IMG/VR virus record: IMGVR_UViG_3300013136_000003
Span: 23,382-87,381 of that record
Strand: one strand, 5' to 3'
Source of the DNA: a virus
DNA length: 64,000 bases
Shown here piece by piece: positions 41,700 through 60,719 of this stretch (its first letter is position 1; each line of letters begins with the position of its first letter). The translations under genes and the position numbers were made by a program. The notes beneath the pieces were generated by a model, which saw nothing but the letters and a program-made list of their open reading frames with translations, searched no databases and was not told where the DNA came from.

Positions 41700-41897
41700 C
41701 CGACCCAGGTCGGTAGGCCGGCTCCGAAGAGGAGTCGGTCCGGCTCGTTCGAGGACGAGGATAGGGTATACTCCGCCCTGCCCATCAGTATCTAAAGTAC
41801 TCCCTAGTAAACTGTTGCAAAATTTTTAGCCCAGATTTTTTCCTTCCAACAGTTCGTGTTATATTAGCTTCATATTAATCAACTAACACTTTTCACC

Positions 41898-42155
41898 ATG
41901 GCATTCAGACACCAACCCATTTCGACCGAAGACCTTCAGGCTCGCCTCCGCAGCGGAGTCGTTAGGTTCGCCTTTGTGAAGCTTGATGGCTCTCTGAGGG
42001 AAGTTCAGGGAACGCTTAACTTGAACCACATCCCTGCGACCAAGCACCCCAACGGGAACGGAAGCCCTTCTCCGAGAGCGGTGCGGTTTTTCGACTACCT
42101 CGTCGGAGAGTGGAGAAGCTTCCGCATAGACAGTCAACTGTTCGTATTAGAATAG
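41898..42155 (+). CDS. WYL_2/Sm-like SH3 beta-barrel protein
   Basis: GVVRF.F.K.DGS.RE..GTLN...FFD....EWRSFR. Confidence 0.8.
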   Translation: MAFRHQPISTEDLQARLRSGVVRFAFVKLDGSLREVQGTLNLNHIPATKHPNGNGSPSPRAVRFFDYLVGEWRSFRIDSQLFVLE

Positions 42156-42226
42156 TCTCAGCCACACACCCGAGCCCTTCAGATTGGCTCGGGTAGGAGG
42201 GATAAATAGAACAAAAGGCCCTCCAC

Positions 42227-42802
42227 ATGTCACACGTAATGTCATTTAATGAGTTCATAACCGAATCGATACAACCCATAAACGAGATGCCAAGACACCA
42301 CAGGTACGGCGGTTACCGCAGCAGGTATAACGGATCAGCAGAGTACTACAACGTCCTTCCTCGCGACGAGATGAGAGCACGTAAGCTGAGCAAGAGACCA
42401 TCCAACTGGAGAGCTAACATTTCCGACGAGGAGGTAGCCATCATCAATGCCAAGAAGATGGCCAAAGCGATTACCGACGAGGGCAAGATGATCGCTCGCA
42501 TGGAAGCGGTGTACAACCAGTGGGGTCCGGGTCCAGTGCTGCAGCCTTTTATCGACCGGATAATGGAAGCCATGCCGAACAGGAAGTACACAGCAGCGTG
42601 GAGGATCGGTACTCAGGACGGAGCGGTCGCAGCAAACCCTGAAGGCCACATGTCCGCAGACGATGACGCAGCTATCGCTCACATACTCGCGGACCTTGGA
42701 GTCCTGCCGGACGAGCACAAGTTCAAGGGTAACAGTGCCGAGCAGATAATCTACCAGGTAGCCTACAACAAGGCCATGGAAGAGGAACTAGCTAGGGCTT
42801 AA
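42227..42802 (+). CDS. Tagged virion-type protein inside early block
   Basis: GGATAAATAG upstream; MSHVMSFNEFITES. Confidence 0.7.
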   Translation: MSHVMSFNEFITESIQPINEMPRHHRYGGYRSRYNGSAEYYNVLPRDEMRARKLSKRPSNWRANISDEEVAIINAKKMAKAITDEGKMIARMEAVYNQWGPGPVLQPFIDRIMEAMPNRKYTAAWRIGTQDGAVAANPEGHMSADDDAAIAHILADLGVLPDEHKFKGNSAEQIIYQVAYNKAMEEELARA

Positions 42803-42824
42803 GTTACTCCCTAGTACCGGTCTG

Positions 42825-42965
42825 ATTTTTTCCTTTCAAAAGTTATTGTTAAATTAGCAATCTCAATACTAGAGATATGAGATCCAACAAGATAATTTTT
42901 TCCTTTCAAAAGTTATTGTTAAATTAGCAATCTCAATACTAGAGATATGAGATCCAACAAGATAA
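42825..42965 (+). repeat. Perfect 70-bp tandem duplication containing early promoter and first codons of HDAC gene
   Basis: ATTTTTTCCTTTCAAAAG...ATGAGATCCAACAAGATA occurs at 42825 and 42895. Confidence 0.95.
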
Positions 42966-44122
42966 AAGTATTTTACAACCCGAAGCAAGTCCTATCAGCG
43001 GACGCGAAAAAGAACTTCAGCAAGAGCCCGCTCAAGCCGAAGCTTCTGCTCGATCATTTAGCTGATAACGGGTTGGCTGACCACTTGACCATGGTCAGTA
43101 ACTTCAGACCGTACAATGCTTACGATTTTCAGATAGCCCACACGGTCGAGTACGTCAACTCTTTCTTCAAGGGCGGTTACTTAGCTTCGACCAACGGCCT
43201 GGCTTGGAGCCAGCAGTTCGCTGACTCTGTTAGGTACACGAACGCCAGCCTGTGGGAAGCTATAAAGAACTCCCTAGTAAACCCTGACGAGGTAAGCTTC
43301 AGCCCGACCAGCGGGTTCCACCACGCTCGTCCGAACAAGGGTTCAGGGTTCTGCACGTTCAGCGGGCAGGTCATAGCGAGCGTCAAGGCTTACCGCAAGT
43401 TCGGAGCGGTTGGCTGCTACATAGACTTGGACGGACACTTCGGCAACAGCCTCGAAGATTCCCGGTACTTCCAGCCTGACCTCAACGAGGCAGTACCTGT
43501 TGGATTCAATTTTAACTCGCGCCTGCAGGGAGAAGCTTACTACAAGGATTTAACCAACTTCGTTTTAAAGAGACTAACTCCTGCCATAATCAACGGCGAG
43601 ATCGATTACGTGGTGTGGTGCCACGGAGCTGACAGCCACGAGTGGGACCAGCTCGGCTACCAGGTAAATACCGAACAGTGGGTACGCTGCTCCAAGTTCT
43701 TCTGGACGTGGGTGAAGGAGATGGACCAGGCTCTGGGCCGCCCGCTCTCCGTAGTAGCTTCCCTATTCGGTGGTTACAGGTCGGACGATTACGATTCGGT
43801 CTTAAGCCTCCACGCTAGCGACTTACGCGAGTGCATGAACTGCTTGCTCGGCTTGGACGTCTACTACGAGACAGACGTTAAGCCTGCTCCGAAGAGAGAC
43901 TACTTCAACACTCACAGAGACTTCTACGTCGGCCGGACCGAGGGGTCAACCATAGACCGTAGTCTCTACCGTCCTTCCACTGATCGCGGGACGAGACTCT
44001 CCGACCAAGCCATGCTCGACATCAGGAGAAAGGAATGGGAAAGAGAACGCGACCGCCAGAACGAGGAGGAGTTCGAGAAGTACTACGCTCTGAGACAGAA
44101 GTTAAACGGCAGGTCAGAGTAG
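42947..44122 (+). CDS. Histone deacetylase (Zn-dependent HDAC/AcuC) family protein
   Basis: AHT.EYV, GFHHA....GSGFC.F, DLDGHFGNS, HGADSH..D.LG, GGY. Confidence 0.9.
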   Translation: MRSNKIKVFYNPKQVLSADAKKNFSKSPLKPKLLLDHLADNGLADHLTMVSNFRPYNAYDFQIAHTVEYVNSFFKGGYLASTNGLAWSQQFADSVRYTNASLWEAIKNSLVNPDEVSFSPTSGFHHARPNKGSGFCTFSGQVIASVKAYRKFGAVGCYIDLDGHFGNSLEDSRYFQPDLNEAVPVGFNFNSRLQGEAYYKDLTNFVLKRLTPAIINGEIDYVVWCHGADSHEWDQLGYQVNTEQWVRCSKFFWTWVKEMDQALGRPLSVVASLFGGYRSDDYDSVLSLHASDLRECMNCLLGLDVYYETDVKPAPKRDYFNTHRDFYVGRTEGSTIDRSLYRPSTDRGTRLSDQAMLDIRRKEWERERDRQNEEEFEKYYALRQKLNGRSE

Positions 44123-44617
44123 ATTTTTTCCTGTCAGAGATTCTTTTTACTTTTACTTTAAATTATTAAAGCAATGAACTTAACAGAAGTCAAAGTCCGC
44201 AAGTCAGAACGCCCGCAGAAAACAAGGATATTCATCTTCGAAAAGGGCGAAGGAATTCTTGAAAACTTAATGAAGCGGCACAGCCGCCCGTACGAAGCGT
44301 ACAAGAAGGAAGTCCTTCCTCTCGTGAAAGCATGGCTCGCCGCCAACCGGCCAGACGTCAACGAACTGGAAATCGGCAGAAGCATAGGCTGGAGCCAGAA
44401 AGCTGGCTGCTCGTGCGGCTGCTCTCCAGGGTTTATCGTCGACTACTTCGGCTGCCGAGACATTTACGTAACCATCTCGAACTGAGGTGGCCATGCCCGC
44501 CCGGCATGGGTATCTCAGGGTCCCCTCTACCGAGGGGATTTTTGTTAAGAGAGAATTGAGCCCGATTTTTTCCTGTCAACCAGTCGAATTATATTAGCAG
44601 CATCAATCAACAAAACT

Positions 44618-45214
44618 ATGAGCGCAGAAACTACGACAAAAGTCACCACCCTTACCGAAGCCAGAGCAGCCATCGCCGGAATACCAGGTCTTCACCAAGG
44701 CGGGTGCGGCATTGCTGCTCTTGCCCTAGCTCGTTGGATAAAGAACAGCAACATGGCCGCTACCACTCTGTTCGTCCTAGGTGACAACAGCGGCTGCTAT
44801 TACAGGACCAACGTTAGCGCGATAATCGATTCGTCGATCGAACCCGACTCGTGCTCGCACATAGGGCTGATAGTATACGACTTCAACAACAACAACCAAC
44901 AGTACATAATCGATGCTCGTGGAATATACGACATGGGTGAGTACCTCTACATCAACATCGTTTCGAAGGAACAGATAATGGTCAGGTCCATAAACCGAGT
45001 CGACCGGTGGAACGATTCTTTCGACCGTCGTAACGTTGCTGAGATAGCTAAGCGCCTAGGCATAGACCTTTCCGACATCGATTGCAGAACTCGCAGCGAG
45101 TTCTGTGAAGCTGCGGCTAAGGAAACTAAGATCGAAGAAACTCAGACGGTCGAAGGCTACCAGTCCCTTCTCTGGGAAATGCTGCAGCCCACGTCCCTGC
45201 TGATGTCAATGTAA
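44618..45214 (+). CDS. Early hypothetical protein
   Basis: GGCGIAALAL...H...IID..G...WN..FDR; follows early promoter. Confidence 0.7.
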   Translation: MSAETTTKVTTLTEARAAIAGIPGLHQGGCGIAALALARWIKNSNMAATTLFVLGDNSGCYYRTNVSAIIDSSIEPDSCSHIGLIVYDFNNNNQQYIIDARGIYDMGEYLYINIVSKEQIMVRSINRVDRWNDSFDRRNVAEIAKRLGIDLSDIDCRTRSEFCEAAAKETKIEETQTVEGYQSLLWEMLQPTSLLMSM

Positions 45215-45778
45215 GTATATTATTAACAACTTAAAATCAACCGACACGAAGAAAATCTTTTCGTTACTGCTCTTGACCTTGATGGTCGCGATCGTTCTCC
45301 CGTCCTGCACAGACAACCAAAGAGCCAAGAGGTTCGGCGGAACCATGGAGTACCAGGTACCGAAGGGCGAGGAGTTCGTCAACGCTACGTGGAAGGACAA
45401 CAACCTGTGGGTCATCACGAAGAACCAAACTACCGGAACGTTTTACATGCATGAGGTCTCTGATTACGGAGTCATGCAGGGGAACGTCGTCATCACGCCA
45501 TGAAGAAAGAGCATGCCATCATCCTTGACCTGATCCGCCAGTACCTAGAGGACAAACCAACCCTAAGGTTTGGGCAAGCCCTCTTCAACATGGGAATCCT
45601 GGACCAGGAAAAGAAACTGGACGAGAGCGGGATCCACCGGCCGCGAGACATTCACGCGGACCAAGATCAACAGATCATAAGCAGAATCAGAGAACAAGCA
45701 AAAAAGAATCCGGGAATTTAACCCGGATTTTTTCGTTTCAGAGAATAGACTTATATTTGCTTATCAAATTTAACTAAC

Positions 45779-46162
45779 ATGCAAGAGCACCAGATCGAAA
45801 CAATGCACAGGGAATTGAAGGAAGCCGCACGCACCGTCCTAGCCAAGTACGGCATGGACCTCATGTCATCCTCTCTTTCCTACAGCCGCAAGCTTGACCG
45901 CAGCGGAGTTGAAGGTTTCCATGTCTAGATCAAAGGTATAACCCAGGTTACCTCTGAGACTGCCAAGACAGCTGACGATGGAATGATCCGCTCAGGTTTT
46001 GCTGGACCCAACACCAAAGCATGGGTTACTGATCGTAACGGTCGTCGCCGCGAGGTGATCATCACCGAAGCTAAGAGGTCGAAGTATGCCTTTTACTTTG
46101 CTGACGACCAACGTAAGAGCCCGATGCTCGGGCACTTCCGTCTGTTCTCCGCTACTCAGTAG
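45779..46162 (+). pseudogene. 127-codon early ORF interrupted by in-frame TAG (45926-45928)
   Basis: Starts right after early promoter; ...GFHV*IKGIT... stays open to 46162. Confidence 0.6.
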
Positions 46163-47816
46163 CGGGGACAGGATTTTTTCCTTTCGAGAAAAGGTCTTAT
46201 ATTAGCTCCATAATCAATCAACAATGGGAAAGAAGTTAAATAAGTTCGCAAAGCAGATGATCGACGCCGGCATGCCGATGAAAGCCGTATCAGAGCTTAC
46301 CGATCTCTACCTTGACCAGAATTTTACTGGCGTCGTGGAGATTAAGATAAAGGAAGACCCATACGTCGAGGGAACGTTCGCCATAAGGATCGTGCAGATG
46401 CAGGAAGTGTACTACCGGCACGAGAACGAGGAAAAGAAGATAGAGTACTTATCCGACCTCGACCTCCTCTGGAACAAAGGCGATTACGGCGAAGTCGAAT
46501 TCAACACCTGGCCGCCTACTGCCGGTCCAAATAACCTCCAATTCTTATAGCCAATCATTCAACCCATAAAAAGACATGAACAAAGTACCTATTGACAAAG
46601 ACGGTCACCGTATCCTTACGAAGGAACAGCGCCGGAGAGTTTACGAAAGAGCTCTCAAAACTTTCAAGAAGCACGTCGAGACAGTGATCGAAGAAAAACG
46701 GGGACAGTGTAACGGAATGTGCGTGCACGTCGACCGTGCAGTCAGTTACCTGGGATACGACAGGTACTGGCCGGTAAAAAGATCGTACAGCCGGAAAGCC
46801 TGGCCGGAATACAAGTCGTTCGAGCCGAAAGCCGGCTGGAAGAAGAACACCAGCTTCTGGCTGACCAGGAACGTCAAAGCCAACGGACACACAAAACGAA
46901 TTGCCATCCTGACCGCCCTAGCCGAGGGCAAGTCAAAAGGCGAGTAGTTGATTGATTCTGAAAGAGATGGGGCTTCTGTGGCGGAGGTCCCATTTTTATT
47001 TTTTCCTTTCAAAGAAAATTGTTACTTTTACTTCATAATCAATCAACCTATGGAAAGAACAGGACTAGCTAAAATCGATTTTAACCGCAAGGTCGAGCAG
47101 ATTGCAAGGCAGGATCGCAATAACCGGATGAGAACCGGCCAATACAAGCCTCTGCCCATGTGTCGTAAGGATGCAAAAGCCAAGGTTGAGGAACTACACT
47201 TCATCACAGCCCACAGGAAGTACATGGGCATGAGAGAGTACGATTACCTCGTTAACCGTGCAGTTGAGTGCGGCGAGGGAACCATCTTCTACAAGGGTCG
47301 AACCATAAGCATAATGTAACATGAACGAGATAAATTCAAAAGGATTTTCGATCAAGCTGTGCGGAGACAGCAGCGTTGGCATATTCGATGCTTACTACAA
47401 GCTGGAAGGCGACTTCTGCTTCGAGTCAATGGAAGATCTCCAGGAATTCAAGGAATCCCTTCACAAGACCTTCGAACTTTTGACCGACATGGGAATGGAG
47501 ATTGACACGTTCGAGGAGTTGGAAAAGTCCGACCAGTACGAAAGAGAAGTCGACGAAAGACTCAACGATTGGGAGAAGATCGAAGCTAGTGACGACCTTA
47601 AATCCAACTTTCGTTCTTGGGAAATCGACCATAACGACGAACAATCAGCTGACGCTCTGTTCTACACGATGACTGCACGTCATCCTCAGTGCAAGTCGAG
47701 CTGGCTGCAGAAACTGTGTGATAACTGGGTAGGTTATGAAAGAGACCCAAACGAAGATGTCGACTGATTTTTTCCTGTCGAGAATAATTAGTACATTTAC
47801 CAAATAACTTACTGAA

Positions 47817-48158
47817 ATGAAAACATTTGTATTACTTCTCATCGCTGGTTTGCTGCTCGTTACCGGCTGCCAAAAAGACGACACAGTGGTCGTTCGGAAC
47901 GACCACACAGCTCAAGTAACGGTCAAAGCTTATGGAGACAGCTCATTCATCTTTGGCTGGAGAACTTCCGACATGGAAGACGGATACTGGAACAAGTGGT
48001 TGGAAGAAGACAGTTTAACTCTAGTCGTTGCTCTTAATGTGATGGACACCCTGGAAGTAGGTAGTTACGGCAATCGAGTGGTAGCTTACTTCGACGACGT
48101 TCTCTACGTGGACACAGCTTTCTCCGAGTACACTTACCTAAGGTTACCGATGCAATGA
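47817..48158 (+). CDS. Early lipoprotein
   Basis: MKTFVLLLIAGLLLVTGC lipobox. Confidence 0.75.
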   Translation: MKTFVLLLIAGLLLVTGCQKDDTVVVRNDHTAQVTVKAYGDSSFIFGWRTSDMEDGYWNKWLEEDSLTLVVALNVMDTLEVGSYGNRVVAYFDDVLYVDTAFSEYTYLRLPMQ

Positions 48159-49395
48159 AATTGATAGCTTTACTATTAACTGTGCTAGCTCTGGTTAGTT
48201 GTGAAGCGATAAAGCCAGTGGTTCAAGAAGTCGAAGAGTGGGACACAGTCTACCAAGCCAAACAAGGGTGCGTGTGGACTCAAGTAAACGACAGCACGTG
48301 AGTAAAAGATACCATTCCTTGATTTTTTCCTTTCGCCGAATTGTTCTATATTAACTCTATCAAATTCAACTAATACAAAAAACAGATCATGATCGAACTG
48401 AACATCAACCAAATTTTCGTGACGGATGACATCACACAGCTGCCGTTGTCCGTGCAGAAAAAGGTTCTCGAAGAGTTGGTGATCGCTCACATCCGTAAGG
48501 AAAGCAGGCCGGACGACCTGGACGTTCCAATCGACATCTTCGACGGACACCTCGTTCGCATTCCGCTTCCTCAGGAACCCAACGCAAAGTGGACCTTCCG
48601 CAACTGGGAATGGGCCAAAGGTTTTTGCGAAGCTCACCCAGGCGCCGTTCCTTGCCATGACGAGGACCTCGACCACTCGAGCTATACTTTCATCGACTGC
48701 AGCCAGCTGCGAGTAAGGCCGATGGAATAAGCTGACATCTTCTCAACGGAAGTGGAGCCCAAAAGGCTCCACTTTTGTTTTACCTGGATTTTTTCGTCTC
48801 GTTAAAACTTGTTAATTTTACAGCATAATCATTAACAACATGGCAAAAGAACTAATTGTAGCCCACTTCGCAGCCGATTACAAGGACACTGAGGAACTGA
48901 TCGACGGATTCAAGGAAGCTCTCACGCGTTTTGGAATCAAAGTGTACGACGATCCGAACTGCGAAGGAACTGACACATACGGTTTTCTTCTCTCGAACGA
49001 GGAACTGACCGAGGACGAAGTAAAAACTTTAACTAACGTATCATGAAGCAGCCGCTCGACGTTACCCACCCAGCCATTCACTGGAACGCAGCTGACCAGA
49101 GTTTTTCTTGCGAGCTGTCAAGCATAAGCTTGAACCACATTGACCTTCAGTGCCACCGTCACGAACCGATCGAGCTCGTGAACCCGAATACTGGTGCAAA
49201 GGTTACAATAACCTGGGTCAAGGACGACAAGGACGGAAGCGGCGAGGACACTTACGGGTTCAATTACATCGGTTACAATAAGAGTACAAACCGTCACTTT
49301 ACATTTTTGTTCATAAATGATTAACACTTTTGAACCGAATTTTTTCCTGTCAGAGATTCAATTTATATTTGCTTCATACATTCTAAACAACCACA

Positions 49396-50115
49396 ATGGC
49401 ACAGAGATTTGAAACATCGGAAACCCTTCCACCGTACTTCAAGGAGATCTCGCTCGTCGAGGACCACATGACTAAGGAGGAAGAGCAAGCCTTAGCTCGT
49501 AGGATTCAAAGAGGGGACGAAGCTGCTCTCAACAAGCTCGTGAGCGCGAACCTTAAGTACGTCGTGACCATGGCCAACAAGTTCATCGGCATGGGAGTTT
49601 CGGTCGACGACCTGATTCAGGAAGGAAACCTCGGCCTCATCGAAGCTGCCAAGAGGTACCGCCCGACAGCTGACACGAAGTTCCTCACCTATGCCAAGTT
49701 CTGGATCAGAAAGAGCCTCAACCTCGCTCTGTGCAACCACGGAAGGACCGTTCGATTACCAGTCAACCAGGAATACGACATCTACAAGCAGAAGATGAGG
49801 GGCGAGACCCCGAACCTTGCCAACGTTCGCATCGACATTAAGGTCGGCGAGGACAAGGACGTCAGCCTTGGAGACCTCGTTCTTCGCGACGAGTTCAACG
49901 ATCCGTTCGCAAACCAGGACACTGATCGCATCATGAAAGCTCTTCTCGAAATCCTGAAACCTGCCGAGAAAAGGATAGTTGAACTCTTCTACGGCTTGAA
50001 CGGCGGTGACGGTATGTCGACCAAGGAAGTAGCTGAGCAGGTCGGAAAGACCGCAGCTGAAGTCAACCGCGCTCTGAAAGTCGCGAGAGCGAAGATGAAA
50101 CGAATCGTCAAGTAA
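49396..50115 (+). CDS. Second sigma-70 family factor
   Basis: YFKEI, NLKYVV..A, DLIQEGNLGLIEAAKRY, KF.TYA.FWIR, RTVRLP; region 4 STKEVAEQVG. Confidence 0.93.
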   Translation: MAQRFETSETLPPYFKEISLVEDHMTKEEEQALARRIQRGDEAALNKLVSANLKYVVTMANKFIGMGVSVDDLIQEGNLGLIEAAKRYRPTADTKFLTYAKFWIRKSLNLALCNHGRTVRLPVNQEYDIYKQKMRGETPNLANVRIDIKVGEDKDVSLGDLVLRDEFNDPFANQDTDRIMKALLEILKPAEKRIVELFYGLNGGDGMSTKEVAEQVGKTAAEVNRALKVARAKMKRIVK

Positions 50116-50480
50116 TTTTTTCCTTTCTTAAAATAGTTCTACTTTTACCACATGGAAACTCCAAAACTGAGAACATCAACGGAAGATACTGCTCGCTGCT
50201 GGGCAAAGACGGGAACGGACATTCTATTCTCGGAATCAGACCCCTTCGACTGCAAAGTCTCGAAGGAAAAGCTTGAGCGGAACTTGTACAACCGAATACT
50301 GATCAACCTCGTAGACCTGGAAACCCCAGAAGTAAGCGAGGTTCAGCTCAAGGAATGCATCGAACTATCAAAGAATTAAAGGTATACATTCTGATCACAA
50401 AAGAGTTGCTAGGATCTTACCTTTCAACTCTTTTTTAGTATATTATTAGTAGATAGACCAAAAAAGACTGAGCGCACCAG

Positions 50481-50750
50481 ATGGAAACTAACAAACCTAT
50501 AGACCCGAATAAAAGAACGTATCACGAACTTCTCATGGAGCTGTTTAACCTCAAGGAGAAGGATTACGATAAGTTCATGCACAAGCTTTACGAAGCTTTG
50601 ACAGGCGAAGCTCGAGACGCGCTTCAAAGTCCTGACCCAGTCTCAGAAAAGAAGAAAGCTCTGTGGACCATGATCCAATACTTCCAGAACAAGGAAGAGT
50701 ACGAGAAGTGCGCTGAGCTGAAAAAAATGGCTGATTCATTACAAGATTAA
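50481..50750 (+). CDS. Hypothetical protein with YF...EEYEKCA.L (UVR-like) motif
   Basis: MIQYFQNKEEYEKCAELKK. Confidence 0.7.
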   Translation: METNKPIDPNKRTYHELLMELFNLKEKDYDKFMHKLYEALTGEARDALQSPDPVSEKKKALWTMIQYFQNKEEYEKCAELKKMADSLQD

Positions 50751-51234
50751 ACGATATGACAACTCTTTGGACACAATCATGCACGGACCAGTTTTTGGCT
50801 GCAGCAGTAGTAGTGATAGCAGTGGTGATAACGATCGCTGTTGCTTCCTGGATAATCAAAAGGATAAGAAAATAGGATGCCTAGCCAGCTAAGAAAGAGC
50901 AAGAAAGTCTGGATCATAACCGTTCGAACGGTGGACAAGGAAACGCCGACCGGAGTAGCCACCACGTTCAGGTCAGCTTACAAGCTAGCTCTTCTTGACG
51001 GAAAGATAAGCAAGCCCTGCTTGGAAGAGAGACTCGCGAGGATCCTGTACAGGAAGACTGGATTCTGCCTGATCTGGAATACCGACGAGTTCGAATCCTT
51101 GGAAGAAGCAATGTACTCGCCGGTCGGTCGGTTGGTTAAGATACAAGAGGTACCAGTAAGACGTACCTAGCAGTTGGTTGATTGATGCACGAGAGGAACC
51201 CAAACGGTTCCTCTCGCTGTATAAATAGAAGTAT

Positions 51235-51933
51235 ATGTCAGTCGTACTAAACCTTCAGATACATGGGCAAGGAGCAATGGTAACGTTGCAAGTGTACAGC
51301 CCGTCCAGCTACTACCGCGGAGCTCTATTCTCCAGCAAGGATACGAAGCTAGACCTGTTCTTCGAAACGATAGGCAAGGTGGAAGTTGACTTCCCGTCGG
51401 TCGAATATCGATCTACTTTCTTAACTGACCTGCGAGCCGGGTTAGACGGAGCGGCTGATTTTACCCTATCCAACCTAGGGCCGATCGCAACGACTACTAC
51501 CACGACATCCGGCCCGACTACCACGACCACTACCGATTCTCCGACAACAACGACGACAACCGCTGGAGCTACAACGACCACGACGACAGAATCTCCTACT
51601 ACAACGACCACGACTGAGGCAGCCACGACTACCACTACGACCGCGGCTACTACCACTACGACGACTCTCGTGCCGGAAGTCTACTCGCTATCCAATAGTT
51701 CTTACGGAACCACCGGAGCGGCTTGCGCGATAGACACGCTGAGCCAGACAGTTTACGTTGCTAACGGTATAAACCTTAACAGCTTGAACGGCAACACAAT
51801 CTTTACTGACTCTAGCCTGACTACCAAGATGGTAGGAGATGGTAACTACTACACCATATCAGACGGTGTCAACAAGCACGCGATCATGATCGATTCTGAA
51901 GGACTGATGTCCAACAACTTTACTTGCACGTAA
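51235..51933 (+). CDS. Late Thr-rich (mucin-like linker) protein
   Basis: GTATAAATAG upstream; repeated TTTTTT blocks. Confidence 0.75.
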   Translation: MSVVLNLQIHGQGAMVTLQVYSPSSYYRGALFSSKDTKLDLFFETIGKVEVDFPSVEYRSTFLTDLRAGLDGAADFTLSNLGPIATTTTTTSGPTTTTTTDSPTTTTTTAGATTTTTTESPTTTTTTEAATTTTTTAATTTTTTLVPEVYSLSNSSYGTTGAACAIDTLSQTVYVANGINLNSLNGNTIFTDSSLTTKMVGDGNYYTISDGVNKHAIMIDSEGLMSNNFTCT

Positions 51934-51969
51934 TTTTTTCCTTTCGCGGATTCTTCTTACTTTTACATC

Positions 51970-52037
51970 GTTATCTTGCTGAAGACAAGCTCTAACGGGT
52001 TCGCAGAACAAGCGCAGAGGGTATACTCCGACCTACA
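51970..52037 (+). ncRNA. Small RNA family copy 2
   Basis: Behind early promoter; GTTATCTTGCTGAAGACAAGCTCTAACGGG...AGAGGGTATACTCCG. Confidence 0.6.
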
Positions 52038-54074
52038 CCGAACTTTGGCAGAAAAAATATTTCGCTGAGATTTTTTCCTTTCGCCAGCTTTAGTTAATTT
52101 TACAGCATCAATCAACAAATACTGAAACTATGAGAAAGATCGTTATCTTAAGGTTCGGCCCGCCCATTCCGATTCCGGAAATAAACGCGGCCCTGCGTCC
52201 TCACTTCGCTAACGACCAGTCCGCGAAAGCGTTCCCAGTACCAGGTGGAGTCATGTCGGTCTTCAACACCGATTCAACCCCCGAGCAGATCGCCGAGTCG
52301 ATCAAGGCACTCAGCTTGGACATTCCGTTCTTCGTGTTCCCTTACGATAGTAAGGCCAGCTCCCTACCTCAGCCTCTTGAGGACGCCATCAACAGCGAAT
52401 CGGTACCGTCAAACGGTGCTCAGCCAACTACTCAGACACTCACAGTGGACGAGATTCTGGAGAAGATATCCGATCACGGAATCGAATCGCTCACCGAGGA
52501 CGAACGTGCAACTCTTAACGCTACCAGGTCGGAGGGTTAATCCCTCCGGCCCTAGGCCGAAATACCGAAGACCATGACAAAGCAAGAGAAGGCAAGAAAA
52601 TCTTTTGATTATGCCTGCAAGCAGGCCAGCAAGTGCCGTCACGAGAAGTACCACGTGTCCTGTCACAGCTGCCCTGAGGAAGAGAAGTGCGACATACAGC
52701 AGAGGATCAACAAAGCTCGTGAGGGCATGCACAGCTAGTACTCCCTAGTACCGACTATTTTTTCCTTTCAACAATTAGTATTATATTAGCAACAAATTCA
52801 ATAACATGGCAACAGTAATCGTACCCTTCAGGTTGGGTACCAAGTTTAATTCGCACAAGGTCCACAACCCGGAATGCGACATCATCGAAGGTCACATCGA
52901 CGAGGACACCACACTAATTTACGGAATCTACGTCAAGGGACCGAAAAAGGGTCAGGAATTCTGCGAGTACTACAGCGGCGAAAACTACTGCGTCCGCTCA
53001 AAGAAAAAGAGCTATTCCCGCGCGTGGAGCCCGGTCAACATACCGGTTAAGTACTTCACCCTGTGGCAGTTACTCCGTAGCACGTACGAAACATTACCTA
53101 AATAAATCGCATGAAAGAGATCGTGAGAATCTACGTCAAAGACCCGAAGACCGGGCGAGAGAGAGGAGAGATGGATCCTGAAAAGATCGTCGCTGCTCTT
53201 TCCAAACCAACAGAAGACATTGAGCTTGACTACGACGACGGCTCCGGACGGAACGTGAGGATGGGAACGAGCATGGAACTTGTCGGAGAGAAGGTCAAAG
53301 TCGGAGACATGGAGATCGAGATCCCAGCCCACTAAGTACTCCCTAGTAAACAGACAATGATATGCACACTCTAGCTGAGATTAAGACCGAGGAGGTCAAA
53401 AAGAAGATCGTCGAACGGTGCGGGCCGGAACCTGACAAGCAGGGTCTGGTCTGCCCGTACTGCGGAGCCCACGAGGTTTACGCGGACAGGAAGGAACCGA
53501 ACAATGTCGACAAATGGTTCTGGATGATACGTGCGTTCAGAGTCGACAATTCATCAGAATGCAATAACTGCGGAAGATGGTTCGACCTGTAACAAAGGAC
53601 TCCCTAGTACAGGAGATAGCTAGCCTGAAAGAAAGGTTAGCGACCATCGACGAACGGTGGAAGGGTGCTGTAGTTACCAGCATCTGGGCAGGAAGCACGT
53701 ACAACCATGCTAGGTACTTTCGCGGATTGGAAAGGCAGTCGCTTTATTCCAAGCTGAAAAGACGAGAGCAGAAACTAAGAAAAATACTGAGAGATGAAAG
53801 ACAACCAATTGTACGAGAGAACTGATCCAAGGTTCAAGCACCTCATAGGAAAGAAGGTCAAGTTCGTTTACAAGGGCGAGGTGTGCATCGGCACGCTAGA
53901 CTTCGCAGGAATAAACGACATGCTGCACAGCCAGTTCCAAGTTACCGCTAGCAGGACCCCTCACTGGCCGGTTGACCCAAGTACGATAGAGGAATACGTG
54001 GACGACAGAGTCCGTGTGGGAAAATAAAACTACACGGATTTTTTCGTTTCGTGCAAATGTGGTATATTAGCTTT

Positions 54075-54145
54075 GTTAACTTGCTAAAAGCAAGCTCCAA
54101 CGGGCCGAGCCACATAGGACTTGGGAGAGTATACTCCGTCTTGCT
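54075..54145 (+). ncRNA. Small RNA family copy 3
   Basis: Behind early promoter; GTTAACTTGCTAAAAGCAAGCTCCAACGGG...GGGAGAGTATACTCCGT then T-run. Confidence 0.6.
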
Positions 54146-54341
54146 TTTATTTTTATGTAGCAGTCTTCAGCCGCAAAAGTTTAGTTTGCAGCAGAGGTGC
54201 CGCTGATGTTAGTCTGTAGTACAATATTAGTAACGACAGCGACTCACAAAAATACGCAAATATTTTAGTCCGAGATTTTTTCCTGTCAGTCTTTAGTGTT
54301 ACTTTTACTACATCAAATTCAACTAACACAAACTTCAACGT

Positions 54342-55502
54342 ATGCAGCAGAACGAAATTTCAAGAATGGGGAGAAAGGAAATCCTCGTCCGGCAGTTCTT
54401 CACTGAACACCACGGCGGCGCAATTCCGATCGACCGCACGGTTCAACAGCTCTACTCCCAGTTCATGGCCAACACCGAGAACGCGGACGTCAGTTACGGG
54501 CTGTTCAACGGGGTCGTCAAGAAGTTACGCCGCGGGTTCAATGCAATAGCTCCAACAGGTAGGAACCAAACTCCCCTAGGTGAAGGTATCGTCGAATCGG
54601 ACGAACAGGACGTGGTCGAACCAGCCAACGTAATCGAGATCGGAAGCATGGCATTCCCAAACTTCCAACTCTACCCGACCGGAGGACTGATCGACAAGTT
54701 ACTGTCCGATCACACCGAGGATGGCGGACTCTACTCTGGAACTGCGAACATCGTCGTCGGAGAGTCCGGCGTCGGTAAGTCGACAGTGATGCTTCAGATT
54801 CTCGCTAAGATCAAGAGAGAGAAACCTGACGCTAAGATTCTCTACATCTCTTCCGAGATGACTCGCAATGACCTGTTTTTCTTCTACGCTAAGATGCCGA
54901 TCATCGGCACCGTTCCTACCCTGCTCCTCATGGACTACATCATGGGTCGGTTCGACATCGTGCTGAAAAACACCATCAACAGCAATGAGTACGACATCAT
55001 CCTCCTCGATTCTTACCAGGACACCATCGTGAAGATGGCAGACGTCCTTGGTTGGAAGGCAACCCGTGCAGCAACGTGGCTGACCAACATGCTCATCGAA
55101 GCTGCCGATAAGAACGGCAAAGCGATCTTCGCTATTCAGCACCTTACCAAAGGCGGACAGTACGTCGGCTCTACTTACCTCAAGCACGCTACAACAGCGA
55201 TGATGGAGATGAGGTTCGACGAAGCTGGCCGCAGGTACGTGGAATTCTCAAAGAACCGCCGCGGCGGGTCTCACATCAACAAGAGACTGTACTACTCCCT
55301 AGTAGACGGTGAACTCGTCTGGGACGAGGAAGCATGGAACCAGGAAGTCGAAGCAGCCGCGCTCGCAAACGGAGAGAGCTCCCGTCGTTCTGAGCTCGAA
55401 CACAAGTTCAACGATCTGTTCCTGTCGGTCGGTAAGAAAGGAACGGACGGAGAGGCAGAAGAAGTGACGGTGGAGGAAACCGGCGAAGACCAAGAAAATT
55501 AG
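54342..55502 (+). CDS. RadA/Sms-like (RecA-fold) ATPase
   Basis: GESGVGKST, LYISSEM, IILLDSYQ, H.TKGG.YVGST.LKH, KNRRG. Confidence 0.85.
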   Translation: MQQNEISRMGRKEILVRQFFTEHHGGAIPIDRTVQQLYSQFMANTENADVSYGLFNGVVKKLRRGFNAIAPTGRNQTPLGEGIVESDEQDVVEPANVIEIGSMAFPNFQLYPTGGLIDKLLSDHTEDGGLYSGTANIVVGESGVGKSTVMLQILAKIKREKPDAKILYISSEMTRNDLFFFYAKMPIIGTVPTLLLMDYIMGRFDIVLKNTINSNEYDIILLDSYQDTIVKMADVLGWKATRAATWLTNMLIEAADKNGKAIFAIQHLTKGGQYVGSTYLKHATTAMMEMRFDEAGRRYVEFSKNRRGGSHINKRLYYSLVDGELVWDEEAWNQEVEAAALANGESSRRSELEHKFNDLFLSVGKKGTDGEAEEVTVEETGEDQEN

Positions 55503-55529
55503 TAATCAACCAACTTAAAAATTAAGCGC

Positions 55530-56357
55530 ATGATCGGAAACGACGAATTCACAAACATCGTGGTTGCCGAAAGGTACAACCGCTTGACCAACGAGACCCT
55601 CTTCCAGACGACCGAGATGCTCATCAACGAGATACCGGACCTGTCGGTTGAGTCGGTCGACCGCCTCGGAGACGGGAACGTCAGCATCAACCTCGTCCAC
55701 ACCAAGGACGCAGGGTTCGAAAGGCTCTGACCTGACGAGGTCTTCCGCTTCGGAATCTCCCTAGTAAACACGCCTCACACTTCTGAGATCAAGGACTTCA
55801 TGTACCGTCTGGCTTGTTCCAACGGTATGATCAGCCGGACTCCGGTCGATGACGGCCAGAAGTTCAAAGGACCTGGCGGCGGTGGACTCGCAGGGCCAGA
55901 CGCTTTCCGCGACATCATCAACCAGGCCCACATCTGGTCCAACAACGGTTTCATCCCTACCTCGTTTGAGGATAAGCTCGGAAGAGCGATGGACACGCAA
56001 GCCAGCCTTGCCGAACTCAGCAGAGTGTGGAACCTCGTTCAGAGTCAGATCCGCGAGGAAGACCCTGACAGGAAGTTAAAGATCGTGCAGTCCGCAAAGC
56101 TCCAGCTGTTCCCTCACCTTGAGGAGACCGAGCGCAGGCTGATCAAGAAAGGGTTCGACCCGAAAGCTCTCATCCCTGACGAGATGAAGTTCATCCGCAC
56201 CGGCCACACGATCTGGGACCTGGTGAACGACCTTACCTGGCTCGGTTCCCACAATTCGATCTTTGACCTTTCTAACCCGAAATCTTTCAAGGTCGACGGC
56301 TGAAACCTCTTCACGAAGAACTGGGACCTCCAGCACGCAAGACTGGCAACAGTTTAA
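55530..56357 (+). pseudogene. DUF932-like gene with two in-frame TGA codons (55728, 56301)
   Basis: One continuous frame ...GFERL*PDEV...YRLACSNGM...TIWDLVN.LT...VDG*NLF...TV-TAA. Confidence 0.6.
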
Positions 56358-56467
56358 GCATACGTTGAATCACAGGGTGGGACGCTGCAGTCCCACCCTT
56401 ACTTTAGTTAGGGCAGACTTTACTCCCTAGTACAGCAGGATAAATAATCAAAACAATCTAACTTAAC

Positions 56468-57286
56468 ATGGCGGAAACTAAGCACGTAAAATTATTCGAA
56501 CAGCTGGACCAGGAAGGAGCTTTGAATTCGGAGGAACCGAAGAAGGAGTTGAGACCTGGCCAGAAAGCAGCAGCAAGCAGAGGGGACGACATCCTAACGG
56601 ACGAGCAGTACGCAGCTTGCTACCTAAACGCAATAAGATCGCTCGGAAGGGCTGAAGATACGAGAGGAAGGGGAGATACAGCTCTCACAAGGAACGCGAT
56701 GAAGATGACTCAGGAAACGAGCGATGACTGGCAGAACGTGTCAAGCGCCAAGCTGTCAGCTTACCTGAACCTTAAGCCGCAGACGGTCGAAAGGACCGTG
56801 TCAAAGTTCAAGCTTCTGCTACAGGGCCAGAGAGAAGGCACAGAATCCAACATCATCTGGCCGGAACTCGCCAACCTGTTCGACCGGTTCGAATCCATGC
56901 CAAGGGCGGAAGTACTTTCCATGGCTGAGGAATCCATAACGAGCGAGCCGGACATGACCGCTTACCAAGAGTATCTGGATAAGATGAACGCTCAGTCGAA
57001 GAAGAGCAGGGATAAGCAGAAAGATACCGACGCAAAAGTAAGGCGCGAGATCAGGTCAGTCTTTCTTGGAATGATAAAGAAGTTTGGTGGAGATACCGAG
57101 AAAGCTGCGAGCATAACCAAGAAAGCTCTTGCTAAAGCTTTCAACACGGACCCGTCGGACATAGTAAACCTAGCCAAGCTGGAATTCAAGAACGAGGAGA
57201 GCCTCAGGAAAGCTTGGGTAGCTAGGCGGTTCGACAAGCCAGAACCCGTAGTAGTCGGCAAGGGACAGGAGCAGGAGACAGAGTAG
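56468..57286 (+). CDS. Tagged virion-type protein
   Basis: GGATAAATAA upstream; KHVKLFEQL. Confidence 0.7.
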   Translation: MAETKHVKLFEQLDQEGALNSEEPKKELRPGQKAAASRGDDILTDEQYAACYLNAIRSLGRAEDTRGRGDTALTRNAMKMTQETSDDWQNVSSAKLSAYLNLKPQTVERTVSKFKLLLQGQREGTESNIIWPELANLFDRFESMPRAEVLSMAEESITSEPDMTAYQEYLDKMNAQSKKSRDKQKDTDAKVRREIRSVFLGMIKKFGGDTEKAASITKKALAKAFNTDPSDIVNLAKLEFKNEESLRKAWVARRFDKPEPVVVGKGQEQETE

Positions 57287-57476
57287 TCTACTCCCTAGTA
57301 CGGTAAGATTAACCTTCCGCGCCCGCGCGTCATGATAACGCGCGGGCGCGGTTGTTTTTACTGAGAGCCCATGCCCTCCCGGCATGGGTATTTTTTGTGA
57401 CTCCAGGCTCGAGGGGTTTTCGGGACCAGCCACAAAGGCTGTTTTCGGTTTGGATAAATAACAAAAACGTTTCTCA

Positions 57477-57791
57477 ATGACCATAAGCAAGGCCATCATC
57501 ACAGACTTTGGGATAGACCTAGCTCACCACGTTACTTTCAACATAGAAGTATACAGAGGTTCCAACCAGCTGGGTTTCAAGCTAAAGGGTTACCCGACCG
57601 CGACCCAGTACAATGACGGCAAGAATTCCATAAAGAACGAGGATTACTTATTCGACTTCTCGGTCCTGCCAGCTTCCGTTCTGACCAAGATAACGGAGCT
57701 GAAAGATACCATAGAGCAAGAAATGATAAACAACCTGCCTGAGTGGGCAGGTGGAACGAGAGTGAACGATGACGGAACGCCAATAGTATAA
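57477..57791 (+). CDS. Late hypothetical protein
   Basis: GGATAAATAA upstream. Confidence 0.7.
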   Translation: MTISKAIITDFGIDLAHHVTFNIEVYRGSNQLGFKLKGYPTATQYNDGKNSIKNEDYLFDFSVLPASVLTKITELKDTIEQEMINNLPEWAGGTRVNDDGTPIV

Positions 57792-58186
57792 TGCAGGAAA
57801 TGGAAAGTAAAGCACCAGCGATAAGGAAAGAGCAGGTCCAGGACCCAGAACTCAGAGAGTTCCTAGCTTACGCAAGGGAGATCATCAAGTACTCCAAGCC
57901 AGCTAAGATCAGGGTCTTTGATGACCACGGTCTCTCGAAGCAGATGAAGTCCATGGGAGCTTTCTTCCCGAATACCGAAGAGATCTGGATCCTACGCGGC
58001 AGGCGCGTGAGAGCAGATTGGTACCGGACCCTAGCCCACGAGCTGGTCCACCACGGTCAGAGAGAAAAGAACATTGATCTTGACGGAACCGACGGGTCCA
58101 AACACGAGAACGAAGCTAACAGCTTAGCCGCCGTTATCCTACGCGAGTGGGGCAGGCGTCACCCAGAAATATACGATCCAGCATGA
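57791..58186 (+). CDS. HExxH zinc metallopeptidase-like protein
   Basis: RTLAHELVHH.Q...ENEAN..A. Confidence 0.8.
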   Translation: MQEMESKAPAIRKEQVQDPELREFLAYAREIIKYSKPAKIRVFDDHGLSKQMKSMGAFFPNTEEIWILRGRRVRADWYRTLAHELVHHGQREKNIDLDGTDGSKHENEANSLAAVILREWGRRHPEIYDPA

Positions 58187-58809
58187 GCAAACTAGTCTAT
58201 AACTTCAAGGAATTCCTAGCCGAGGCGGTCAAGTTCGACGTTCACGGTTTCAACAAGAACGTCAGGGATCCTGAGTACAAGGAGCTGAGGAACATGGGCG
58301 TCCTGAACACGGTCGAGCCGGCTCACCACAAATACCTACACTACCTAAAGATGGAGGTAGACGACGCTAAGCGGTTGATGGACGACATGAACTACGATTC
58401 AGCGATCATGGCTCTAGAGGAAGCTGAGTCCATGCTCAAGATGCTGAAGAAAGCGGTGGAAGACGCGTTCATTGCCAACCAGGAAGAGAACCAACCGCCG
58501 GACGAGGAGGAAGAACAGGTTACCGAGGAGGAGGAAGCTAGCATGAAGGAGTACTGGGACTTAGTAAAAGCAGGCGTGCTGCCAGAACCTGACTTCGAGG
58601 ACTTCAAGAGCTTGCCTTCCCATGCCAAGTGGGTCAAGTGGATCCAAGACGACGGCAACTTCATGATGAGCTTCCTGAAGGACGGTAACTTTAAGATGGT
58701 AAAGCACTACGTCAACGAGATTGAGTGGTTGCTGGGCAAGCTAAGGAGCTCTGCAGAGCAGGCAGCCGCAGAGCAGGAAGCCGAGGCTGGCCGGAAGGGT
58801 ACTCCGTAG
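58183..58809 (+). CDS. Tagged virion-type protein with internal duplication
   Basis: MSKLVYNFKEFLAE; EYKELRNMGVL / EYWDLVKAGVL repeats. Confidence 0.7.
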   Translation: MSKLVYNFKEFLAEAVKFDVHGFNKNVRDPEYKELRNMGVLNTVEPAHHKYLHYLKMEVDDAKRLMDDMNYDSAIMALEEAESMLKMLKKAVEDAFIANQEENQPPDEEEEQVTEEEEASMKEYWDLVKAGVLPEPDFEDFKSLPSHAKWVKWIQDDGNFMMSFLKDGNFKMVKHYVNEIEWLLGKLRSSAEQAAAEQEAEAGRKGTP

Positions 58810-58841
58810 TAAGGCTACTAGCTAAAAGATAGAACAAGACC

Positions 58842-59249
58842 ATGAAGTTAAAGCACGTTCTCCTTTTCGAGAGTTTCCAGGAGCTGAGCAAGTCAGAATT
58901 GCAAGAGCTAGAGGCGGCCGGCATCCTGCCGTCATGGTTCTCTGACGTTGAATCCCTGGTTGAGGACAACCCCAGCTTGGAAGTGGACGAGGAGAACGGT
59001 ACGATAAGGGATTCTGACCAGGATTTCGTCCTGGACTTCAGGAACAGGACCTTCACAGACGAGGAGGAGGGCGAGACCAAGAGCTTCGACGATCCGGACC
59101 TTCTTCCTTTCTTCACGGTACCCAATGGCAAGTCCGACCTCTCGCCCAAGCAGCTGGATCCCATCCTAAACTACGCGGCAGACCGGGTGGAGACCCACAG
59201 GAGGATGAGGGAACTTTTCAGCCAATCTGAGGATCCTGATTGGCGGTAA
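58842..59249 (+). CDS. Tagged acidic virion-type protein
   Basis: MKLKHVLLFESFQE. Confidence 0.7.
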   Translation: MKLKHVLLFESFQELSKSELQELEAAGILPSWFSDVESLVEDNPSLEVDEENGTIRDSDQDFVLDFRNRTFTDEEEGETKSFDDPDLLPFFTVPNGKSDLSPKQLDPILNYAADRVETHRRMRELFSQSEDPDWR

Positions 59250-59397
59250 CTAGCAGGGGTGGGACTCCCTAGTACGGGTACCGGGCCGGCTAACCGGCCA
59301 GATTTCTAAGTTCTACCTGCACTCCGTAGTACAGCTACCCAAAAAGCCTGCAGGGGCCGGGAAAAAGATACCTGCAATCTCTCTAACTAATTGATTA

Positions 59398-60084
59398 TCA
59401 ATTTATTTCTCCGAGAGCCCTCTTGGCCTCGTATATGAGTTCGGTCAGGTCCTGCTTGATCTCCTCGCGGTACTCTTCCCTAAGCAGGACAGGCGATGCA
59501 ACGTGGACTTCCACGCCGTGCCATTTCAGGAACCGGTTGAACAGGTGGCCCATGCCCCAGCGAGCTATCCGATCCTCGGTCTCGACGACCAGCAGAGATA
59601 CTTGCTTCCTCATGACCAGCTCTATCAGCTTGTCGTGTCCTTCCAGGGCCTTCCGGCCGTTCACAGGCCCGACCTCACTGATGACTTCATCCACCCGTAT
59701 TCCGGCCCGCACGCAGTACTCCTGCATCCTGTCCACCTGCCTGGCCAAGCGGGCAGGTGCGGATTCGCCCGGCTCGCCTCTACTCCCTAGTACCGCTACC
59801 CTGCAGTAGAGGACCACACGCTTAGTCTGCTTCAGTTTACTCCCTAGTACAGCTACAACGTTCGCTTCAGTGTACATGACCCGGCCGTTAGCTTGGTTCT
59901 TTATAGGTAGTAGGAGACCCCGTTTCTCGTACCGGAGTATCGTAGCTTTCTGAACGCTAAGGAACTTCATGGCGTCCTTTCTGTAGACCATGCGGCCCAA
60001 GGATCCCATGTCTCGCACGTTCTCGAGAGAGTAATAGTTTACAGTGGGCTGGCTGGTGGTCGTTGTGGTAACTTGTTCTTCCAT
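59398..60084 (-). CDS. MerR-HTH + serine resolvase (IS607 TnpA-like), catalytic Ser apparently replaced
   Basis: A.KFL.V...TILRYEKRGLL...GR..Y HTH; VLYCRVA (normally YxRVS), L.RQV, DEVISEVG, LVVE..DRIARWG; no tnpB nearby. Confidence 0.85.
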   Translation of the reverse strand: MEEQVTTTTTSQPTVNYYSLENVRDMGSLGRMVYRKDAMKFLSVQKATILRYEKRGLLLPIKNQANGRVMYTEANVVAVLGSKLKQTKRVVLYCRVAVLGSRGEPGESAPARLARQVDRMQEYCVRAGIRVDEVISEVGPVNGRKALEGHDKLIELVMRKQVSLLVVETEDRIARWGMGHLFNRFLKWHGVEVHVASPVLLREEYREEIKQDLTELIYEAKRALGEIN

Positions 60085-60719
60085 AACCCTATTTATCCCA
60101 GAACTAGGTATCTTCTCGCACGGTTCTGATACCGCGGGCTGCTTAAAGCTCGGCAGCTACCCCTAGGGCCACGGTCTCTCGCGAATCGTTTGTTCGGGCA
60201 CGCAGAGGGAACCCCCACCACCCGCCCGTATTGGGGTGCCCCTTTGGTACCCGCTGGCTGGGATGAATTTCGGCTGGAGCTAGGTACTTTTTGGGCTAGG
60301 ACTCCCTAGACTCGCTACATCGGGTCACTGGCTTGCCCTAGTAAGGGAACCTGGGGTGCGGGAACTTGGTACTTTTTTAATATCAGCTAGGTACCTTTTA
60401 CGTTCATTCCCTGTCCGTGACCTGCTTGATCTGGTTTCCAAGTGACGTGAGAACTTCGTACTTTGCCGTGCTGTTTCTGGTTGGGTTTTTTTCTTTTTCT
60501 GATAATGATGTTGGTGGGGCCGCCTCTCCGATTTTACTCAACTTCGGGCTCGGAAACGTGGAAGCTATGACGAATTCGGTGCTGTAGCGTTTCACCGTTC
60601 CTTTGGCCTAACTTACTTCTTCCAGCTGAAAAAGAGCAACGGTCTTCATGCGATTATTTTTTTTTTGGTTCGACCTTTATCTGCCTGACCTAGAATAAAT
60701 AAATAGAAATAGAAAAACT

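Follow-up and report, generated by a model that had tools for sequence, protein, structure and literature searches.

What is the function of a short, strand-specific DNA word that is written again and again into a single block of a giant lake phage genome, partly at the expense of its genes, and what reads it? The question is raised by the last 64,000 nt (the window, whose positions are used below) of an 87,381-nt virus contig, IMG/VR record IMGVR_UViG_3300013136_000003, with an estimated completeness of 32%. An initial annotation had noticed about 15 copies of a box of the form TACT-CC(C/G)T-AGTA, all on the + strand, with none in the first 41 kb and the last at about 60.3 kb, beside a gene for a recombinase-like protein. 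Here we find that the word is clearly selected as DNA, overriding coding sequence, and we tentatively favour a docking site for a protein, perhaps the recombinase-like protein itself, which appears to be the relic of a transposase.

The contig holds 16–18 boxes with the consensus (T/G)ACTCC(C/G)TAGT(A/C), all of them on the + strand between 41.8 and 60.3 kb, in agreement with the earlier count. The exact word TACTCCSTAGTA is present 10 times on the + strand and never on the − strand; 0.02 copies were expected, and none of 100 shuffled sequences reached 10. With up to two mismatches there are 18 matches against 2.98 expected, 16 of them on the + strand (41798–59849); the two on the − strand (19755 and 40036) carry two mismatches each and are at chance level. 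The copies at 43745 and 60300 are weaker. A search of the whole contig for the core CTCC[CG]TAG returned 18 copies on + and 0 on −, all at window positions 41800–60302, with none in the 64.7 kb preceding the field and none in the 3.7 kb following it.

More than 30 related IMG/VR contigs were collected via the RecA-like ATPase encoded within the field and the recombinase-like protein, and the word is present in every one of them, on the strand of the genes and against the direction of the recombinase-like gene. It reads ACTCC(C/G)TAGT in every clade and is kept even where identity has fallen to 49–56% for the ATPase and to ~30% for the recombinase-like protein, mostly as ACTCCGTAGT(A/G). In a 270,136-nt genome (100% complete) ACTCCSTAG has 0 forward and 10 reverse copies, all within 230073–238259 (8.2 kb), and in a 253,137-nt genome (94% complete) 0 forward and 13 reverse copies, all within 173700–184736 (11 kb); the word read backwards, as a control, gave one or two matches per strand. 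More than 240 kb of each of these two near-complete relatives is devoid of the word and its orientation flips nowhere, and whole-record scans of seven relatives all gave 0 copies on the minor strand. A uniform distribution over both strands of the genome is contradicted by these counts.

The bearers are a family of uncultured giant lake phages. Sequencing runs containing this DNA are lake-water metagenomes, and RNA runs contain at most 0.11 of the sampled words. Cultured or named relatives were not found, as megablast of 20 kb against GenBank phages was empty and tblastn of the ATPase and the recombinase-like protein gave matches only at ≤31% identity. In the nearest outgroup, the 484-kb phage LR756508.1 (ATPase 31% identical), the word is not above chance level and the recombinase-like protein is absent, and a contig whose recombinase is 25% identical to ours (L032) has neither boxes nor another obvious polar word.

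Two genes show that the word is maintained at the level of DNA. In an alignment of eight ATPase orthologues, 170 degenerate residues are invariant, but no more than 9 of them are encoded by a single codon throughout. Three of these nine are Y, S and L, which follow one another in the box; the fourth box codon varies only at the variable last base of the word. The ATPase gene has a box in every relative aligned, with one to three per gene. In the recombinase-like gene the reverse-complement box directly follows the YxRVx codons, where it is read in frame 0 as VLGS in 3/3 genes examined from the clade of the window and in frame 1 as GTTES in 5/7 genes of a distant clade, with a length difference of six residues between the two clades, while it is missing from 2/2 intermediate genes examined (L052, L063). 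The word is thus conserved at this site and the peptide is not, so the proposal that the boxes overwrite coding sequence was correct. The accompanying observation that boxes lie both just past stop codons and inside open reading frames (ORFs), encoding SLV in one sense and VLGS twice in the other, is likewise borne out.

The shape of the word was examined in a logo of 102 distinct boxes from ten related contigs, which shows a single asymmetric block, g(T/G)ACTCC(C/g)TAGT(A/C)(c/a)(c/a). Beyond −1 to +13 the information content stays at 0.22 bits or less, and within 45 nt on either side there is no other conserved element and no A/T-rich or start-site signature. The initial annotation described the box as an inverted repeat with an asymmetric core. 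The asymmetry holds, but the true repeat comprises ACT/AGT only, and there is no covariation between positions 0 and 11 (pairable in 78 of 168, versus 76.7 in shuffles), so a hairpin is not the selected feature. The hairpin reading was ruled out on this ground, and because the array units have no common fold. Scans of the window for tRNA and Rfam families had no matches.

These results bear on the first proposals made for the boxes, namely a KOPS- or Chi-like translocase guide, or a signal for packaging, injection or segregation, with its target near 60.1–60.4 kb. Like KOPS and Chi the word is polar, its density is highest at one end, and the RecA-like ATPase gene lies inside the field. However, a word confined to 8–11 kb without a switch of orientation is not a genome-wide guide of the KOPS/Chi type, and we know of no Chi or KOPS word that approaches its 11–13 conserved positions in length. 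The large terminase gene is ~70 kb from the boxes, which argues against packaging; cumulative GC skew has no landmark at the array; and four lake metagenome assemblies contain no box-to-box deletion joint. A local protein-loading cluster recalls parS, and parS clusters sometimes lie inside the gene of their own binder, but the asymmetric logo without flank covariation is not palindromic as parS is. A translocase guide or packaging signal is therefore extremely improbable and not plausible, while a polar, DNA-level protein-loading cluster is plausible. Two further ideas were rejected: a replication origin, since GC skew only tracks gene direction, and a recombination or cassette boundary, since the insertions and deletions that separate the contig from its 90% identical relative (a 310-nt deletion and blocks of 3.4 kb and 1.5 kb) do not end at boxes.

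The positions of the boxes and of the features discussed with them are collected in the table below.

Table. Boxes and associated features of the window
Feature	Position	Strand	Context
Box TACTCCCTAGTA	41798–41809	+	Intergenic; class A (early) promoter 25 nt downstream
Box	42805–42816	+	Stop of 42227–42802 2 nt upstream; class A promoter 7 nt downstream
Box variant AACTCCCTAGTA	43268–43279	+	Within histone-deacetylase-like gene (42947–44122)
Weak box CTCTCCGTAGTA	43745–43756	+	Within histone-deacetylase-like gene (42947–44122)
Box	52739–52750	+	Immediately 3' of stop codon; class A promoter 6 nt downstream
Box variant TACTCCGTAGCA	53071–53082	+	Close to end of ORF 52806–53105
Box	53337–53348	+	1 nt past stop of 53111–53335; ATG 53362 13 nt on
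Box GACTCCCTAGTA	53598–53609	+	5 nt past stop of 53362–53592
Box	55293–55304	+	In ATPase gene, encodes YSLV; codons frozen in 8/8 orthologues
Box variant ATCTCCCTAGTA	55755–55766	+	In DUF932-like gene (truncated in this contig); encodes ISLV
Box	56421–56432	+	Intrinsic terminator 22 nt upstream; late promoter (ATAAATA at 56440) 7 nt downstream
Box	57289–57300	+	2 nt past stop of 56468–57286; then terminator hairpins 57317–57351 and 57367–57389
Box TACTCCGTAGTA	58800–58811	+	Own TAG is stop of 58147–58809; ATG 58842 30 nt on
Box, first of 57-bp pair	59263–59274	+	Downstream of last + strand gene
Box CACTCCGTAGTA, second of 57-bp pair with 59263	59320–59331	+	
Box	59781–59792	+	Antisense to recombinase-like gene; VLGS there, in loop expected to hold catalytic Ser
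Box	59838–59849	+	Antisense to recombinase-like gene, 57 bp past 59781; VLGS in linker between winged helix-turn-helix and catalytic domain
Last box, degenerate, GACTCCCTAGAC	60300–60311	+	~600-nt non-coding stretch upstream of recombinase-like gene
RecA/RadA/DnaB-like P-loop ATPase gene	54342–55502	+	
Recombinase-like gene (228 aa): MerR-type winged helix-turn-helix and IS607-type serine-recombinase catalytic domain	59398–60084	−	Ala for nucleophile Ser (YCRVA)
Early promoter (class A), ~37 bp, GATTTTTTCCTKTC ... TAnnTTnnC	33038–54310	22 on +, 3 on −	
T4-like late promoter (G/A)ATAAATA(A/G)	2453, 7708, 10963, 26279, 42202, 56440, 57454, 60096 (−), 60695 (examples)		15–30 nt before many start codons

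Only 13% of the region is non-coding, yet this part holds 10 of the 18 boxes, and boxes 42805, 52739, 53337, 53598 and 57289 have a stop codon 0–5 nt upstream. In-gene boxes are located in linkers or loops. Among 189 boxes, 15 lie 9–54 nt after an intrinsic terminator, 8 have a terminator 8–57 nt downstream and 3 lie within a terminator hairpin; a start codon follows 0–2 nt past the box in three places. The order stop, conserved box, ~30 nt, terminator recurs, at another location, in three distant clades (L068 630, L071 2852, L072 121). The two very strong tandem hairpins directly after box 57289 (57301–57395) could be a small RNA of ~50–95 nt or a plain double terminator.

The sense orientation and the location just past stop codons are also what would be expected of an RNA-processing site that cuts polycistronic early transcripts at gene boundaries. 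Such cleavage at the conserved copies in the ATPase frame would, however, destroy the ATPase mRNA, no RNA that might be processed is evident for the arrays and antisense copies, and neither hairpin covariation nor an Rfam match in the window was found. RNA processing is accordingly among the least probable explanations.

The word is confined to a delayed-early block with an extra sigma factor, the RecA-like ATPase, a DUF932-like protein and the recombinase-like protein, and the gene for the last is always in the densest part of the box field, which upholds the reported clustering at this gene. Pfam places MerR_1 at residues 42–77 and Resolvase at residues 91–197 of the protein, and phrog_6620 'transposase' matches with E = 1.8e-27. 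A profile of 20 relatives has as its closest solved structures the TnpA catalytic domains of the IS607 family (3lhk, 3lhf, 6dgc, 3ilx and 6dgb), and the order of domains, winged helix followed by serine-recombinase catalytic domain, is that of the IS607 family. The nucleophile Ser of YxRVS is missing, with Ala97 in 20/20 family members (YARVS of 3lhf is aligned opposite ycrsa) and A, N, P, D or G at this position in nine more distant homologues, so that by sequence the protein is inactive as an enzyme in all 29 examined. PF07282, the sole TnpB model used, had no match in G000, G004 and G005 (this 32%-complete contig and two near-complete relatives), while eight control genomes were positive. 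The lack of both the nucleophile and TnpB suggests that the relic is kept for something besides transposition. It would be made late: an exact ATAAATA late promoter lies 5–25 nt upstream of its ATG in 12 of 16 genomes, in the window at 60090–60096 (−).

In the excerpts of a study of IS607-family TnpA, the N-terminal winged helix binds short direct repeats, nucleates there and then spreads, and the end motifs are 9 bp long, spaced by 10–11 bp and close to the element ends (PMC6188088). By analogy, a sequence-specific protein would dock on the strand-specific word, with the neighbouring relic as the likeliest reader. The relic could nucleate on the boxes late in infection, as TnpA does on directly repeated end motifs, and bridge or coat the 8–18-kb domain. 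It would then act as a polar fence or silencer, either as a roadblock or insulator that separates the early block from the late genes downstream or by shutting off the block late in infection.

The arrangement of the boxes is relevant to this proposal. Their spacing had been noted to shrink toward the recombinase-like gene, but it does not do so steadily: in the 18.5 kb of the field, a 9-kb gap (43.7–52.7 kb) is followed by one box per 0.26–1.7 kb and then by a dense end cluster. The last six (58800–60311) are spaced by 463, 57, 461, 57 and 462 bp, with no sequence similarity among the intervals. In a 73% identical relative (L012) the corresponding spacing is 57, 449, 57 and 471 bp, and the near-equal intervals of ~462 bp in the window may therefore be due to chance (with 10.5 bp per helical turn, 462 bp makes 44 turns). 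The short period recurs: in relatives, the G+C-rich non-coding DNA that immediately precedes the recombinase-like gene holds two to five boxes with a period of 57/58 bp, and 22 of 23 adjacent pairs 56–58 bp apart (11 contigs) are at 57 or 58 bp, although their spacers are barely alignable. A fixed period with free spacer sequence indicates a constraint on length or phase, as predicted by cooperative protein binding. An idea of two related G+C-rich segments was dropped when blastn (E = 1e-3) of 59–61 kb against the remaining window returned no match. A second small repeat, GA(A/G)CT(A/T)GGTACTTTTT, has 3–5 copies on the + strand in the non-coding DNA upstream of the recombinase-like gene (60101–60464).

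Docking by the relic is favoured because word and relic occur together (in 18/18 loci found via the relic and 11/11 found via the ATPase, among contigs covering both places), and because of the behaviour of TnpA, the fixed period, the dead enzyme, the late promoter and the selection on DNA. The chance that docking of some protein is the primary function of the boxes nevertheless falls somewhat short of even. Our best single reading, a polar docking word that is read by the IS607 relic and marks or regulates the delayed-early block, is put forward tentatively; the identification of the serine-less relic as the reader is possible but on balance doubtful, and another docking protein in this role is quite unlikely.

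Several observations weigh against this reading. The winged helix-turn-helix is the least conserved folded domain of the relic (56% mean pairwise identity versus 66–67% for the catalytic and helix-E parts), and between clades its identity of ~30% is no better than that of other parts. As the word is near-invariant, this divergence is an objection, for the reader of 10–18 fixed sites should have a frozen DNA-binding surface. The co-occurrence of word and relic may reflect shared ancestry and synteny. Distant clades do not have the 57-bp period, their array spacings being 68–327 bp, and G exceeds C on the box strand in 16 of 20 array spacers outside relic coding sequence, which docking does not explain. 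Strict co-orientation with genes is unneeded for docking and expected of a transcription-linked signal. The likeness to the IS607 TnpA systems of IS1535, IS607 and ISC1926 lies in the domain order and in short asymmetric direct repeats clustered beside the gene. In contrast to these systems, as they are described in the excerpts of the source (PMC6188088), the boxes are 11–13 rather than 9 bp long and lie 57 bp to kilobases apart rather than 10–11 bp, within an 8–18-kb field that enters coding sequence; 9-bp motifs in a 10–11-bp phase within ~60 bp of element ends are not found here, and there is no nucleophile Ser, no TnpB found and no evidence of mobility. The suggestion of a directional protein-loading cluster is thus sustained insofar as the signal is polar, acts at the DNA level and is best read as docking, but transcription-linked readings fit about as well.

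The first of these is a stand-alone middle-class promoter, single-block and read by a phage sigma factor, with the arrays as tandem promoters and the antisense copies firing through the recombinase-like gene. Every copy points along genes, the preference for non-coding DNA would be natural for a promoter, and along the block the early class A promoters (33.0–54.3 kb) give way to boxes. The 15 boxes that follow a terminator show the usual order of terminator and then promoter, and others stand just upstream of early or late promoters, a situation paralleled by the tandem promoters of T4. The contig encodes three sigma-70-family proteins and a complete relative five; the genes at 39256–40137 and 49396–50115 are in or beside the box field and the third is elsewhere on the contig. 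The deep conservation of the word also resembles that of the late promoter ATAAATA. The T4 late promoter TATAAATA and the middle MotA box are single-block phage promoters, which the boxes resemble as short, exact, co-oriented, mostly intergenic and conserved words of one block. They differ from these in having no fixed −10 partner, in lying in or ahead of terminators and within genes, and in forming G+C-rich 57-bp arrays, and the phage has its own late promoter, ATAAATA, as a separate motif.

The logo offers this reading little help, as it has no second conserved element of a two-block sigma-70 promoter and no A/T-rich or start-site signature. A two-block promoter would be expected for the sigma factor encoded in the block, since this protein has both region 2 and region 4. 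A terminator just downstream of eight boxes, three boxes inside a terminator hairpin, start codons 0–2 nt past a box, several conserved in-gene copies (up to three in the ATPase gene) and arrays of fixed period in G+C-rich DNA are all awkward for a promoter. A T7-like RNA polymerase was not found, in a search whose controls gave no signal either. Overall, a middle promoter is an unlikely explanation, though far from a negligible one.

A second transcription-linked reading is a co-transcriptional signal to the elongating polymerase, a pause or antitermination word recognised in the non-template DNA or the RNA, that would carry early transcription through terminators and through 1.5 kb of untranslated sequence on the strand opposite the recombinase-like gene. 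RfaH ops and lambda nut/boxA are orientation-dependent words of this kind for elongation and antitermination. Like them, the boxes are orientation-dependent words of ~12 nt in the transcription units of a single block, sometimes past a stop and before a terminator (57289 in the window, and the three clades mentioned above). Strict sense orientation across a long co-directional block would be expected, in-gene copies would be tolerated and the invariance of the word suits recognition by something conserved, for example RNA polymerase or a host factor. The boxes are densest in an untranslated part of the + strand (59.26–60.31 kb, which holds 6 of the 18), and the sense strand of the array spacers is rich in G and poor in C; RNA of such composition would be poor for Rho loading. 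Unlike ops and nut, however, the boxes are many per unit and in arrays, while processive antitermination normally needs one site. No NusG paralogue or RfaH-like gene was found in three phage records (this contig and two near-complete relatives, controls positive), boxes follow terminators more often than they precede them (15 versus 8 of 189), the 57/58-bp period is unexplained and the genes past the array have their own late promoter (60695). An elongation signal is accordingly rather improbable.

The strand bias (18 copies on + and 0 on − here) also brings to mind the programmed single-strand nicks of virion or replicating DNA in T5, tf and the phiKMV group, possibly as clamp-loading sites. 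According to the excerpts of PMC3517423, such words are exact, 9–19 nt long, confined to one strand and conserved in position among relatives; tf has 14 nick sites at TACT/RTGMC and phiKMV-like phages have CGACxxxxxCCTA/CTCCGG. The boxes share these properties, and TACTCCG overlaps the phiKMV-like word. Clamp-dependent late transcription requires a nick in the non-template strand, as described in the excerpts of PMC12867686, and it is the non-template strand that carries the boxes, which in distant clades lie 1–17 nt upstream of ATAAATA late promoters, with box 56421 as a case in the window. But the known nick words are spread genome-wide and the phiKMV word is on the non-coding strand, the opposite sense (PMC3517423, in the same excerpts), whereas the boxes are restricted to 8–18 kb although late genes occupy most of a 270-kb genome. 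No nickase candidate was found either, as the relic has no serine and the DUF932-like neighbour has no clear fold match. Programmed nicking is therefore very unlikely; its more elaborate form, in which non-template nicks are built-in sliding-clamp loading sites that switch on ATAAATA promoters without replication forks while the relic marks or holds them, is even less probable. All residual readings together are also improbable.

The surroundings of the boxes give a wider picture of the phage, which looks like a T4-type jumbo phage with large terminase, baseplate wedge protein, DNA ligase and collagen-like fibres. Its early promoters are co-oriented with their genes, 20–25 nt before start codons that have no Shine-Dalgarno sequence, and their −10-like part resembles the TAnnTTTG element of Bacteroidota. 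An exact 70-bp tandem duplication at 42825–42965 bears one early promoter, and in assembly graphs from four lake metagenomes there are breaks or jumps at such promoter copies (joints 44153>48322 and 46203>47764). A histone-deacetylase-family protein of 391 aa (42947–44122; Pfam E = 8e-18) is encoded in the early block, with a box and the duplicated early promoter upstream. The DUF932-like gene (55499–56303), which a language-model atlas groups with DUF932, has lost ~310 nt of its 5' part relative to the 90% identical L011 and has an in-frame stop 26 nt before box 55755, while it is intact (372–393 aa) in 11 relatives; a PDB search with its predicted fold (pLDDT 79) gave faint matches to Rad52 and none at E ≤ 0.001. 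L011 lacks a 3.4-kb block with small genes (45229–48654), and its own 1.5-kb block is missing here (50381–50383); the early region shows cassette-like turnover. The structural half has a G+C content of ~0.42 and the early block one of ~0.50, with the rise at 30000–34000. The same collagen-like repeats of 9-nt period are found at both contig ends (genome 10–500; window 61718–63991), and the assembly probably broke within one repeat-rich fibre gene or between two related ones.

To our reading of the literature the system appears undescribed, on the basis of searches for the word and for inactive phage serine recombinases: among the matches listed, 10-mers of the word returned primers and nucleosome-positioning constructs only, and nothing relevant was found on domesticated or inactive serine recombinases in phages. 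New here are the counter-argument from domain conservation, the two-frame box at the serine loop, the count of frozen codons, the terminator statistics, the counts in near-complete genomes and the elongation and nicking alternatives.

In this family of lake phages the word has outlasted the divergence of the surrounding proteins, down to ~30% identity, and has been written into genes in two frames, at the very place where a transposase is expected to hold its catalytic serine. If the relic reads the word, a serine transposase would have been turned by a bacterial virus into a marker or regulator of a genome domain, and the two would form a ready-made and very specific protein–DNA pair. Should it prove to be a promoter, an elongation signal or a nick site, the word would represent the missing 'middle' layer of control in a large uncultured group of T4-like phages of lakes.

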